In this document: piece after piece, positions 24,301 through 27,300 of the stretch
Layout: every line of letters begins with the position of its first letter
How positions within the stretch are numbered: position 1 is the stretch's first letter
Virus record (IMG/VR): IMGVR_UViG_2778260991_000005
Location: 1 to 30,127 of that record
Origin: a virus
Taxonomy: Duplodnaviria; Heunggongvirae; Uroviricota; Caudoviricetes
Direction: 5' to 3' (one strand)
DNA: 30,127 nt
Program-made: the position numbers

Positions 24301-27300
24301 TTTTCCGCACGTAACCCCAGAGAACGACGTAATACTACCTCCGGTAGTGCGTCCGCCACCTGATTGCAGACAGCCCACCTGGATAATTCAGCCAGCGATA
24401 ATTCCCGCTCCCGCGGGCCGTTCATTGCGTGACGGATGACATCAATCATCCATGCTGCCAGGTTTTGTTGAGCAAGTTGCCCGAGTGATTCGGATGTCTG
24501 GTCGCGCAGCTGGTTGTCGCAGTGCCAGCACAACACCATCGCGCCGGTGCCGTAACGATGTATGACGGTTTCGCTGTGGTGATAGTCACCATGAGGCCAC
24601 TGGCAGGATTTAACATGACGCAGGAGCCAGTCAGACAGTGCACCAGCGCCGCCGGCAGCACGAATCACCCGTTCGTCGCTGAAAAATGGCAGTACTGATT
24701 TATCTTCCGCCAGCGGCTGGCGAACGGCAGGAACAACTCCGGACGGCAGACCACGCATGCTTTTCGGTTCCGGCTCCACCAGCACTCGAGGGTTATGAAA
24801 TACCTGCATGGATTCACGGCCCGGCTTTAGCACCACCAGCCCAAGTTCCGGTACCGGAACAGGTCGAAGCAATAGCCGCACGTTACCTCCAGATGCGTTG
24901 CTGGAATGTGCGGGACGGACGCGGTGGTCGTTCGGAATAAGGGAGTCTGACGTAGATTATCCAGTGACGATAATCGAGGCTGAGGGCTTTCTTAATCTCG
25001 TATCCGCGTCTGCGGTAGCACTGAATTAACCATTCAGCCTGTTCTTCAGTGCATGGAGGATGCTGGTACCAGTCGGTTTTAAATGCGCGTGAACCCCGCC
25101 CGTGCCTGCTGGCAAGGTCGGTTGAATCATCAGAATTGTGATGTTGGGTATAGCGTGCCATCGGTTTTCTCCGGTGGCACGGTGTTACTCAGCAGGAGTT
25201 CAATCCTGTTCTGGATTGTAGATGAGTTTATTCTTCTGCAAAAGCAGAAAATCCAGCCTTAAGACCAATCTCTTTCAGAACGTGTAATGATGTTACAAAT
25301 TCATCTTCACGCAAAATAAAACCGTCCGTCATAAGCTCATCAACAAAATAAATTAACACAGCTCCGCTCTTCCTTTGTTGAGATTGCAAACATTTAATTC
25401 GGCAGTGACTGGCTATAACTCCATTCTCAACGCGTACAGCATAGAGGCCATTTTCACTAAAAATTTCACAAAATTCTTCGATTTTCATCTTCAGAATCCT
25501 TCCAGATAAATAGCTCTCCCCTTCTCAGGGTCCATCCCTCTTGTCCCTGCGCGCTACTCAAAACAGGAGGATTCTAATTAATCTTTATTTCTAAGCAACG
25601 CAAAAAACAAACCAAAAAAAAGACAAAACCACAAACAATACAAACAATACAAACAATACAAACAATACAAACAATACAAACAATACAAACAATACAAACA
25701 ATACAAACAATACAAACAATACAAACAATACAAACAATACAAACAATACAGGCGCATCGATAATTAATTAACTTATCGGGCTACAAGGTAATATAACTTC
25801 AGTTAAAATTATTAATCTCTTATTCGTGAAAAACAAAACCCGCCGAAGCGGGTTAAGTGCGGGTGCTTTGAGGATGCCTGACACATCAGAGGTGGCGAGG
25901 GATTTCTCCCTCGCCTGGTCTCTTACTCCTCAGGTTCGTAAGCTGTGAAGACAGCGACCTCCGTCTGGCCGGTTCGGATTCGTACCTCGCAGAGGTCTTT
26001 CCTCGTTACCAGTGCCGTCACTATGACGGTTAAACAGATGACGATCAGGGCGATTAACATCGCCTTTTGCTGCTTCATAGCCTGCTTCTCCTTGACCTTT
26101 CGGTCCGTAAGAGGCTAATCTCTATGTGTCGCATAGATATGGCCTCAGATTAATGTTAAGCGTCTTGCAGGACGCGTAATGTTAACTGGGGCTTTTCTCT
26201 ATCTGCCTTTTGGTGTTCATGCCTGAGGCAGATAGCCTCAAGCACCCGCAGCAATTCTACTTAACTTCCCTTTCACCGCAAATTATTTTATCTCCGGTGG
26301 CAATGTTCACCCGATATGGGAATTCCCATATCGGGGTTAACTCAACCGGTTAAAGCTCCATTAATTTTCCGGCAAGTTCATCTCGTGGCATTACCAGCCA
26401 TCCGCGCGATTTAAGCAAAGTCAGTGCTTCTTCAACCGTCACCAGCTGACCTGGCGCATAACTTCGGATGAAAGCGGTTTTATCGTCACGGATCGCCAGG
26501 TGAAAATCGATATTTATTTTGCCCATAGCCCGCTCTTTCTCGTACTGGTTGAAGTAACTGTCTTCGAGTTTTTCGAATACTTCCCACGCCTGATCGGTTT
26601 CCAGCATTTTGGCGTGGCGGGCGGCTCCGCGTTCTGTCCAGAGTATGAGTGAGCGAACATTGCGGGCGATTTTCACAGACTCGCTTAAAGATAGTCTGTG
26701 CTTCATGCCTCTAAGCTCATCACCAACTAATTTGTAAAAATGCTTACCTTCAATAAAACGTTCAGCGTTTCGGGCGTGATTTTGCTGAATGCGTATCGCT
26801 TCTGTGCCGTAAAGCTGCGCCAAAAGTTCGGTGGTAATAACAGGAATCTGGTTGTAAGTGATCGGGGAAAGAGTTTCGACAGAAATTTTAGTTGTCATGA
26901 TGACGCTCTCCGGTGGTTACTAAATTACTCACCACGACTGACGCCAATCAGGGATGGTGAACTGTGCAGGGTTGGCGTAACCGGGTAACCAACCGGCGCG
27001 GATCTCTCCGCCCCCACACAGCCCACCATAATTCAGATGTGCGCATGCATACGACAATAAAAAAACACGCTCGCGGCGTGTATCTGTCGCGGTTACTATC
27101 CGGGACGCCAATCCCGACGCCAGATTTGGCTGGCGCGTCGGAAATATAGCCCCGGACTAGTAATTACGTCAACCCCAGCGGCAAATTGAATACACCACCA
27201 GCGCCACCGCCATCGCAATTCCTACCGTGGTGAATGCCTCAGGCCAGGTCATCGTAAAATATCCTCCACGCTTATCAGTCCGTTCCGCTCCAGATAACTC

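Follow-up and report, generated by a model that had tools for sequence, protein, structure and literature searches.

Locus and prophage setting

The window is the whole stretch of DNA analysed here, 30,127 nt of the IMG/VR record IMGVR_UViG_2778260991_000005. It is an Stx2 lambdoid prophage with the gene order ORF6N - hok - DUF968 - RusA - Q - tRNAs - stxA2B2, and the hok cassette sits in the delayed-early (nin) region in the same orientation as ORF6N, DUF968, RusA and Q. The cassette spans about 26281..25828 (~450 bp) and includes a promoter and a terminator of its own; its boundaries are where homology to 933W, Rac and K-12 drops off. The full set of named hok/sok elements was found, comprising the hok promoter, the tac/fbi pair, ucb, dcb, the mok start and Shine-Dalgarno (SD), the hok SD, a protective 3' stem-loop, a terminator and, on the plus strand, a Sok promoter and Sok RNA. 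Judged from its sequence, the locus is a complete hok/sok-type RNA-regulated type I toxin-antitoxin cassette of an already well known kind, carried as a self-contained prophage insert.

An earlier note on this DNA had proposed a hok/sok-type type I toxin-antitoxin in the prophage, which the elements and the Stx2 lambdoid gene context bear out. The interval that it gave, 25900-26250, takes in the core of the cassette and is too narrow at both ends, as fbi and the terminator lie below 25900 and the hok promoter above 26250. Its description of the locus as unannotatable was mistaken, because PGAP labels the identical sequence in RefSeq genomes "hokD: type I toxin-antitoxin system toxin HokD" (WP_000813254.1), though the ORF may fall below the ORF track used for that note. 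Genome annotation captures the toxin yet omits mok and Sok, with no features placed under the leader in RefSeq. PADLOC returned no match for Hok, and no convincing defence-system assignment was obtained for Hok or the neighbouring protein.

Toxin gene and protein

25923..26078, minus strand: hok toxin gene (HokD-identical, 51 aa, ATG start), from the ORF, Pfam and K-12 hokD identity

The 51-aa minus-strand Hok/Gef frame that had been claimed was recovered exactly at these coordinates, intact and with the same peptide, MKQQKAMLIALIVICLTVIVTALVTRKDLCEVRIRTGQTEVAVFTAYEPEE. Pfam PF01848 HOK_GEF matches it at 82.9 bits (E=1.2e-23, cut-off 22 bits), far beyond chance, and the NCBIfam Hok models also match, though under their strict cut-offs. 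The protein fits the Hok/Gef pattern of ~50 aa, an N-terminal transmembrane helix and a TRK-LCE core, and TRKDLCEVR is kept across the Hok protein alignment (A3). The alignment to hokD/relF and to the mok, sok and fbi/tac elements that had been suggested as a check gave 100% nucleotide identity between the hok coding sequence and K-12 hokD, and located every element. Expression of HokD, the identical protein, is reported to be toxic (10.1101/2025.08.07.668861).

The hok mRNA

26254..26281, minus strand: predicted hok promoter, -35 TTGCGG (26281..26276), 16-nt spacer, -10 TAGAAT (26259..26254)
25830..26247, minus strand: full-length hok mRNA, about 418 nt, from the predicted +1 to the terminator U-tract
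26236..26247, minus strand: tac (translational activator) box GGGUGCUUGAGG at the 5' end, pairs with fbi
26186..26192, minus strand: ucb / anti-SD box GCCCCAG, sequesters the mok SD (ensemble pairing)
26111..26115, minus strand: dcb (downstream complementary box) GCCUC, alternative mok SD partner (duplex energy, ensemble)
26088..26093, minus strand: hok SD AAGGAG, from sequence
25894..25915, minus strand: 3' UTR stem-loop GGCGAGGGA-GAAA-UCCCUCGCC, from folds and covariation
25861..25873, minus strand: fbi (fold-back inhibition) box CCUCAAAGCACCC, pairs with tac
25828..25854, minus strand: intrinsic hok mRNA terminator AACCCGC-UUCG-GCGGGUU plus U-tract, from the terminator scan

A simple promoter scan missed the hok promoter, which was placed by homology instead. 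The -10 and the 6-nt gap to the predicted +1 at G 26247 fit the geometry of the R1 TATGAT -10, which has been mapped experimentally (PMC9841398), and the promoter region TTAAGTAGAATTGCTGC is also kept in 933W and Rac. The site TGAACA-16-AATAAT (26309..26282) that the scan did return was discarded, as it occurs at chance frequency and is absent from 933W.

The structured leader that the earlier note placed upstream of hok was confirmed by Rfam RF01794, with a minus-strand match of 108.3 bits at 26076..26247 (E=5.4e-24, gathering threshold 59 bits) that spans model positions 1-157 of 157 and ends at the hok AUG. This model is named 'sok'. Its match falls on the strand of hok and describes the leader of the mRNA; we therefore rejected it as evidence for the antisense gene and tested that gene separately. 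The full-length hok mRNA folds at -176.4 kcal/mol (z=-9.98 against shuffles). Its structure is kept in 44 divergent hok loci, where 74.7% of cells are paired versus about 45% in slid controls, and the covariation score observed in these loci was reached by 0 of 500 shuffles.

The tac-fbi helix comprises 12 bp with a 1-nt bulge (-21.5 kcal/mol) and has a pairing probability of about 1 in the full-length RNA. Since tac does not vary in close relatives, covariation of the helix was unmeasurable in them, and a divergent locus set drawn from genome contigs was used instead; over the 44 loci one tac-fbi pair covaries (C-G in 22, U-A in 19, U-G in 2). Complementarities for ucb, for dcb and for the metastable form also occur in the hok mRNA, with duplex energies of -10.7 kcal/mol for tac/ucb, -8.2 for SDmok/ucb and -9.3 for SDmok/dcb. 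The best ensemble partners of ucb, an element defined in PMC9841398, are the nucleotides of the mok SD, and its GCCCC is invariant in alignment A4. Another top ensemble partner of the mok SD is dcb, where TAGCCTCTTAC is almost invariant in the same alignment.

Truncation at the 3' end frees tac, which in folding of the shortened RNA refolds onto nt 20-36 or ucb, and the cost of the open (tac/ucb) form falls from 21.7 to 7-8 kcal/mol. The open form still lies 7-8 kcal/mol above the predicted minimum of the truncated RNA; our expectation that it would be that minimum was ruled out, as the 5' end favours a local 'metastable' hairpin. The 3' UTR stem-loop is seen in the folds and covaries family-wide in helices 22 and 23; its R1 counterpart shields the active, truncated mRNA at its 3' end (PMC9841398). 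The terminator hairpin proper (25854..25837) is kept in K-12, Rac and most relatives.

The mok reading frame

26143..26146, minus strand: mok SD GAGG, 8 nt 5' of the mok AUG, from sequence
26075..26134, minus strand: mok, a 19-codon uORF MRHIEISLLRTERSRRSRL, from translation
26121..26137, minus strand: small hairpin with the mok AUG (UCUAUG-CGACA-CAUAGA), predicted Sok target (sokT) loop

The mok SD has the same GAGG motif as in R1, where mutations in it abolish toxicity (PMC9841398). Both this SD and the start of mok are conserved. From the AUG at 26134 the mok frame crosses the hok SD and stops at a TGA (26077..26075) that shares an ATGA with the hok ATG (26078..26076). Compared with 933W and Rac, 2 nt are deleted, which leaves these 19 codons, and the out-of-frame ~70-codon mok overlapping hok is absent here: the long R1-type frame contains a TAG, with no ATG, GTG or TTG start after it.

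A private frameshift or a sequencing error was ruled out as the origin of the deletion, because the 82-nt mok segment recurs at at least 99% identity in 777 E. coli records. The 19-codon arrangement occurs in 11 of 80 viral-contig loci and in 5 of 46 divergent loci, distant genera included. Of these 46, 20 have mok at an offset of -58, 17 at -57 (in frame) and 5 at -56 (19 codons). The shortened mok is a common natural variant, and the long (~70-codon) frame is not universal in the hok family. Published work shows that ribosomes need to translate mok no further than the hok start region (PMC9841398), and the 19-codon frame would satisfy this, with coupling to hok predicted from the overlap. 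The reduction of mok to a short uORF had been missed in the earlier note.

The hairpin around the mok AUG is present in the minimum free energy folds of both full-length and truncated RNAs and forms part of a hypervariable patch (26140..26118); across the family, 5 of the 6 pairs of this helix (helix 8) change on both sides.

Sok promoter and antisense RNA

26092..26121, plus strand: Sok promoter, -35 TTGACC (26092..26097), 18-nt spacer, -10 TAATCT (26116..26121)
26128..26196, plus strand: predicted Sok antisense RNA, about 69 nt, by homology to sokW

The simple scan reported no plus-strand promoter, missing that of Sok because its -10 matches just 3 of 6 consensus positions. This -10 aligns by column with the R1-type TATCCT and the 933W TAACCT, and the family consensus of the Sok promoter is TTGnnn and TAnnCT. 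Mutation of the sokW -10 in Sp5 abolishes antitoxin activity (PMC8621323).

The ends of Sok were set from its homolog in 933W, the annotated 71-nt sokW; the RNA is collinear with sokW of 933W/Sp5, itself experimentally validated. It has a 13-nt single-stranded 5' tail, a long hairpin and a U-rich 3' end, folds at -29.8 kcal/mol (z=-4.41), and is complementary to hok mRNA nt 52-120, which include ucb, the mok SD and the mok AUG. The sequence points to a cis-encoded Sok with its own promoter, tail and terminator hairpin and with coverage of mok initiation. The promoter and antisense complementarity on which the earlier note's reading depended are thus both predicted here, homologous to validated ones.

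Among close relatives, the 23-nt patch 26140..26118 is by far the most variable transcribed stretch of the cassette. The first codons of mok fall within it, and it is the counterpart of the single-stranded Sok 5' tail. Its indels shift mok among three configurations, namely a uORF of 19 codons, an extension in frame with Hok and an overlapping frame.

Comparison with known systems

The hokW/mokW/sokW locus of the Stx2 phages 933W and Sakai Sp5 (AF125520) is 91.6% identical in nucleotides from the -35 region to fbi, and its toxin is 92% identical to that of the window. Both lie in Stx2 lambdoid prophages and are alike in tac, ucb, the Sok hairpin and the Sok promoter geometry. They differ in the Sok 5' tail/target patch (GUUCAGCAUGG against GUCGCAUAGAU) and in the C-terminal residues of the toxin (VDYESEK against TAYEPEE). 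The 933W mokW shares the frame of hokW and yields a 70-aa extended Hok, whereas mok in the window is the 19-codon uORF. The 933W copy lies close to the right end of its prophage and runs antisense to the genes around it; the window copy is in the nin region, co-oriented with its own neighbours.

K-12 hokD (relF), in the cryptic prophage Qin, has a 3' UTR, fbi and terminator nearly identical to those of the window, and both genes have lambdoid prophage nin-type surroundings. The K-12 homology begins only at the hok SD; upstream, K-12 has the end of relE where the window has the ORF6N gene. K-12 hokD is without the promoter, tac, ucb, mok start, Sok target, Sok -10 and Sok gene. Sequence comparison indicates that K-12 lost its leader, mok and sok to relBE, and that the window holds the complete ancestral-type locus.

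R1 hok/mok/sok (parB) is the family paradigm, and element order and spacing in the window are as in R1. In both, the +1 is about 169 nt from the hok AUG and the mok AUG is 56-58 nt upstream of it; both have tac/fbi, ucb, dcb, the 3' stem-loop and the same Sok promoter position. The hok mRNA structure covaries between the two, with toxins that are 43% identical. The 5' hairpin is longer in the R1 leader, and the Sok-hairpin region of the window has a 16-18 nt insertion. With 70 codons, the mok ORF of R1 overlaps hok in another frame; the window mok ends at the hok start. The R1 system stabilises a plasmid; that of the window is a prophage insert.

Discussion

Our preferred reading, to which we give a probability of roughly 85%, is that the window carries a complete and probably functional hok/mok/sok cassette of the HokD/HokW clade, with an R1/Sp5-like mechanism and a release-type role. 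The mechanism is drawn from two homologous systems, hok/sok of R1 and hokW/sokW of Sp5. A weak promoter would yield a stable hok mRNA which, at full length, would be locked with tac paired to fbi and ucb holding the mok SD, and because of this lock both ribosomes and Sok would be excluded. Slow 3' trimming to the protective stem-loop would strip fbi, and the 5' end could then refold by tac/ucb pairing, exposing the mok SD and the target hairpin. Sok, unstable and strongly transcribed, would pair over the mok SD and AUG, block mok translation and lead to cleavage of the duplex by RNase III. Once Sok is gone, ribosomes would read the 19-codon mok uORF through the hok SD, stop at the UGA overlapping the hok AUG, and then begin synthesis of Hok, which would enter the inner membrane and cause membrane collapse. 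Several points weigh against this reading: the long R1-type mok frame is without a start codon, the open form lies above the predicted minimum of the truncated RNA, the Sok -10 is a poor match to consensus, and both promoters escaped the simple scan. In addition, hok loci on the chromosomes of K-12 and some other strains reportedly could not mediate post-segregational killing (cited in 10.1101/2025.08.07.668861 and PMC12214031).

The role is the least certain part of this reading. By analogy, the most likely outcome would be activation on induction, with faster host shut-down/lysis and more phage release. The hokW/sokW pair is a working type I system in which Sok is lost on RecA-dependent induction; deletion of hokW-sokW from the Stx2 prophage Sp5 left growth unaffected, and presence of the locus gave faster growth arrest and doubled phage release after induction (PMC8621323). 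As hokW lies at the other prophage end and opposite to its neighbours, this induction behaviour may not transfer to the window copy. As the window copy is co-oriented with the nin region, antiterminated early transcription on induction may collide with the Sok promoter, timing Hok release and Stx2-phage lysis. Addiction or exclusion are possible side roles.

That a functional cassette should instead serve mainly for prophage addiction and/or abortive-infection-type exclusion through Sok decay seems to us doubtful, although it has precedents. R1 hok/sok stabilises plasmids by post-segregational killing and, when carried at high plasmid copy number, cut the plating of T4 by 42% (as cited in PMC8621323); type I systems have further been linked to prophage maintenance, as cited in a preprint. 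Against this, neither Hok nor its neighbour could be placed convincingly in a defence system, PADLOC again giving no match for Hok, and the sole direct test on an Stx-prophage homolog, whose scope lay outside maintenance, pointed to phage release (PMC8621323).

The cassette could also be an inactive relic, like the K-12 loci, in which the 2-nt mok deletion uncouples hok and the native transcript yields no Hok. The TAG in the long mok frame, followed by no later start codon, is in keeping with this, as are statements in 10.1101/2025.08.07.668861 and PMC12214031 that the majority of hok loci on the K-12 chromosome are inactivated and that killing is absent for some chromosomal loci. We consider it improbable, given that the other elements of the cassette are all intact and conserved, that the K-12 type of inactivation (leader lost to relBE) is absent here, and that the uORF would still bring ribosomes over the hok SD to the ATGA, as R1 genetics requires (PMC9841398). 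The 19-codon form arose in divergent lineages, and its recurrence there together with its persistence in the 777 E. coli records is unlike a decaying pseudogene. Far less probable still is that the match is fortuitous or mis-stranded, with no antisense regulator and with hok a small membrane-protein gene of the early operon. The sense-strand match of a model named 'sok' and the lack of a plus-strand promoter in the simple scan would fit such a view, but the plus-strand TTGACC-18-TAATCT aligns with the R1 and sokW promoters, and the tail-hairpin-U-tract RNA (z=-4.4) is collinear with sokW, which is annotated and has been tested functionally.

Systems of the hok/sok family have been textbook material since the 1980s. 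The discovery value of a further member is little, with hokW/mokW/sokW annotated in the 933W record AF125520, a close homolog characterised in 2021 and the identical sequence named hokD in RefSeq; the window cassette is already known and ordinary save for its shortened mok. It nonetheless marks what appears to be an intact and probably active membrane toxin module a few kilobases upstream of stx2 and transcribed in the direction of stx2. If hokW-sokW is a guide, such a module could influence the timing of lysis, and with it phage and Shiga toxin release after induction. The mok frame emerges as a variable rather than a fixed family feature.

One tentative explanation for the variability of the patch 26140..26118, to which we give somewhat less than even odds, is diversifying selection that makes each Sok specific to its own hok mRNA. 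If true, Sok specificity would insulate several hok/sok copies in co-resident prophages, and the mok product would be free to vary because ribosome transit alone would matter.

A separate minor observation concerns the toxin's Tyr47 codon:

25938..25940, minus strand: Tyr47 codon UAC within UACG, candidate TadA A-to-I site (Tyr to Cys), from sequence

In the fold of the hok mRNA, the A of this codon is unpaired with a probability of 0.86, and the surrounding TTACGAA is kept throughout the family in the alignment. In K-12, hokD undergoes TadA A-to-I editing, Tyr to Cys, at about 6% (PMC12214031).

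Identity and extent of the locus

The 51-aa ORF on the minus strand (25923..26078) encodes exactly the peptide quoted in the earlier note, which had proposed a Hok/Gef-family toxin behind a structured leader, and scores 82.9 bits against Pfam HOK_GEF (E=1.2e-23). The leader (26076..26247, hok strand) matches the entire Rfam model RF01794 at 108.3 bits (E=5.4e-24). Although the model is named "sok", the match falls on the hok strand with its end at the hok AUG, so it confirms a structured hok leader and not an antisense gene. A Sok promoter and antisense complementarity were both located in the plus-strand sequence, and the toxin ORF is uninterrupted. 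The hok/sok-type assignment stands, and the locus is a complete member of the long-known hok family. Homology gives good support to its identity and regulatory mechanism. The interval proposed earlier, 25900-26250, holds the toxin and leader, but the functional unit is wider, from ~26281 to ~25828. Nor is the locus unannotatable: the surrounding 581 bp are 100% identical to several STEC chromosomes, where PGAP/RefSeq annotation labels the same sequence "hokD". The locus is thus already known from RefSeq, and experiments have characterised a close homolog.

Elements of the hok/sok locus and its upstream neighbour
+1 at 26247 (predicted), minus: predicted hok promoter, TTGCGG-16-TAGAAT, with the geometry of the mapped TATGAT -10 of plasmid R1
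First 12 nt of hok RNA, minus: tac, GGGUGCUUGAGG, pairing with fbi in the fold
26192..26186, minus: ucb, GCCCCAG, partner of the mok Shine-Dalgarno (SD)
26146..26143, minus: mok SD, GAGG, paired with ucb
26115..26111, minus: dcb, GCCUC, alternative partner of the mok SD
25940..25938, minus: Tyr47 codon, UAC, within UACG, a family-conserved context
25915..25894, minus: GC-rich 3' UTR stem-loop
25873..25861, minus: fbi, CCUCAAAGCACCC, partner of tac
25854..25837, minus: intrinsic terminator
26092..26097 and 26116..26121, plus: Sok promoter by homology, TTGACC and TAATCT with an 18-nt spacer, predicted start at G 26128
26128..26196, plus: predicted Sok RNA, 69 nt, collinear with the annotated 71-nt sokW
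26350..26898, minus: ORF6N-domain gene, upstream neighbour of the cassette

The hok mRNA and Sok

The architecture follows that described for R1 hok (PMC9841398), the 3' stem-loop and terminator completing the same set. The predicted full-length hok RNA (418 nt) folds at -176.4 kcal/mol (z=-9.98), with a tac-fbi pairing probability of about 1. When the 3' end is removed, tac is freed for one of two pairings: with ucb, at -10.7 kcal/mol, or, at -19.3 kcal/mol, with the adjacent downstream sequence (the "metastable" hairpin). The open form, combining tac/ucb with mok SD/dcb, costs 21.7 kcal/mol in the full-length RNA versus 7-8 kcal/mol in truncated RNAs, the predicted minimum being another structure; in this modelling the cheaper open form after truncation would be the direction expected of a switch.

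In the alignment the Sok -10 box falls in the very columns of the R1-type TATCCT and of TAACCT in phage 933W, within a family consensus of TTGnnn and TAnnCT. Predicted to fold at -29.8 kcal/mol (z=-4.41), Sok has a single-stranded tail of 13 nt, then a long hairpin, and ends U-rich. It is complementary to nt 52-120 of the hok mRNA, a segment that comprises ucb together with the SD and AUG of mok. Protection by sokW was abolished by mutation of its -10 box and restored by sokW in trans (PMC8621323).

To examine conservation of structure, 80 divergent hok loci were gathered, one genome per species, and 44 full-length mRNAs aligned; pairs of the window's minimum-energy structure were counted on this alignment, with partners slid by 1-3 columns as controls. 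Paired cells amounted to 74.7% across the 44 mRNAs versus 40-46% in the slid controls, and the covariation score was 0.172 versus 0.06-0.09, a value reached by none of 500 shuffles. One tac-fbi pair varies between C-G (22 loci), U-A (19) and U-G (2), and covariation is also present in the 5' hairpin and 3' stem-loop. Six collected loci on short contigs (L095, L105, L111, L143, L144 and L145) are identical or nearly so to E. coli or R1 types, in assemblies labelled Veillonella parvula MAG, Acinetobacter idrijaensis, Xanthomonas pisi, Ferruginibacter MAG, Streptomyces morookaense and Oscillibacter MAG; most likely the contigs are enterobacterial or plasmid sequence contaminating those assemblies, and no genuine occurrence.

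At fbi position 7 (25867) the window has A, where 933W, Rac, K-12 and all 65 unique viral-contig relatives have C or U. With this A, the U-A pair with tac that R1-type loci have is regained, which makes the predicted end-pairing slightly stronger in the window allele.

The mok reading frame

The sole real departure from the family pattern is a short mok. Its AUG (26134) lies 8 nt downstream of GAGG and opens a frame of only 19 codons; the UGA that closes it (26077..26075) and the hok AUG (26078..26076) share bases in the sequence AUGA. The cause is that, compared with 933W and Rac, 2 nt are deleted right behind the mok AUG. At the window locus the customary long mok frame is open, its start codon absent. 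We rejected the idea of a private lesion, since other loci share the short form and 777 E. coli records, ATCC 25922 and ST131 strains among them, carry the identical 82-nt segment at ≥99% identity. Among 80 viral contigs with identical HokD, 11 have the 19-codon form and 66 an AUG at -57, in frame with hok and predicting an extended Hok of 70 aa like that in the mokW annotation; 3 have lost the leader. The offsets in 46 unique divergent loci were -58 (20 loci), -57 (17) and -56, the 19-codon form (5), the last group including HokC-like Escherichia loci, Pseudocitrobacter and Kalamiella. The in-frame form is also found on the IncFII plasmid NZ_CP128973.1, whose Hok is identical to the R1 Hok sequence. 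Across the hok family, then, the mok frame varies: its AUG is found at -58 (an overlapping frame), at -57 (in frame, with a predicted ~70-aa extended Hok) or at -56 (a 19-codon uORF).

Saturation mutagenesis of R1 showed that mok translation is needed as far as the hok SD/start region and is dispensable past the hok start (PMC9841398). By analogy, the 19-codon uORF would supply the translation that R1 requires, and termination-reinitiation at the AUGA overlap could couple mok to hok.

The frame shifts arise from indels in 26140..26118, the most variable stretch of the transcribed unit among 65 unique close relatives (mean column entropy 0.69 versus 0.10-0.12 in flanking leader segments). This patch covers the first mok codons and is the counterpart of the Sok 5' tail and its target hairpin, and its variation possibly reflects selection for Sok/target specificity between multiple copies per genome.

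Comparison with 933W and K-12

Phage 933W has hokW, mokW and sokW all annotated, and the cassette shares 91.6% identity with this hokW/mokW/sokW locus; its hok coding sequence is 100% identical to K-12 hokD. Homology with K-12 starts only at the hok SD, with the end of relE upstream; gone from K-12, and kept in the window, are thus the promoter, tac, ucb, mok start and sok. K-12 hokD mRNA is reported to undergo A-to-I editing of the codon equivalent to Tyr47, giving Tyr to Cys at about 6% (PMC12214031). As the coding sequences are identical, the window carries this candidate editing site, in a codon predominantly unpaired in the predicted ensemble.

The biological role of the cassette, unlike its identity and mechanism, is not well supported. 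After RecA-dependent induction of the Stx2 prophage Sp5, Sok vanishes and HokW appears, growth arrest comes ~40 min sooner and phage release is doubled by hokW-sokW (PMC8621323). In its own prophage hokW occupies a different position, opposite in orientation to its neighbours, so its behaviour may not transfer to the window copy. Here hok is co-oriented with the early-right operon, and antiterminated upstream transcription would therefore meet the Sok promoter head-on and pass through the hok terminator.

Prophage surroundings and spread

The window is a Stx2-converting lambdoid prophage, with the minus-strand order ORF6N-domain gene, hok cassette, two small ORFs, DUF968, RusA, antiterminator Q, tRNAs, stxA2 (RIP domain) and stxB2. 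Homology to 933W, Rac and K-12 stops just upstream of the -35 or -10 region and just past the terminator, which marks a self-contained cassette of ~450 bp, and the cassette occurs in varied phage and plasmid contexts. At least 80% of the 581-bp stretch was found in 578 of 5426 complete E. coli genomes; hok copies per genome had a median of 2 and a maximum of 10.

A 26-bp perfect palindrome (26310..26335, CCCGATATGGGAA/TTCCCATATCGGG) with an EcoRI site at its centre separates the ORF6N stop codon from the hok promoter. Lacking a U-tract, it is not a canonical intrinsic terminator; at this boundary of the cassette it could form a hairpin that stabilises RNA or serve as a binding site for a protein. 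Directly past the hok terminator, a 9-bp unit (ACAAACAAT, plus strand) is repeated in perfect tandem (25631..25750, 13.3 copies, 100% matches), and the minus strand of this array reads as spurious (LYC)n/(FVL)n ORFs. One related genome has a pseudogene annotated as "frameshifted hypothetical protein" ~300 bp further downstream, beyond the array.

The ORF6N protein weakly matches the PADLOC candidate family PDC-S05 (E about 1e-8). Just upstream of its gene, Rfam places isrK (27060..27136), a C4 antisense RNA (26950..27033) and a C4 a1/b1 target (27097..27149), which together look like an antisense-controlled antirepressor module of the P1/P7 immI-like or Gifsy-1 IsrK type. The stretch from Q to stxA2 contains three tRNA genes, a further two follow downstream of the stx operon, and the sRNA STnc100 (129.8 bits) lies directly 3' of stxB2 (regions 19692..19889, 18235..18385 and 21299..21545 for these features).
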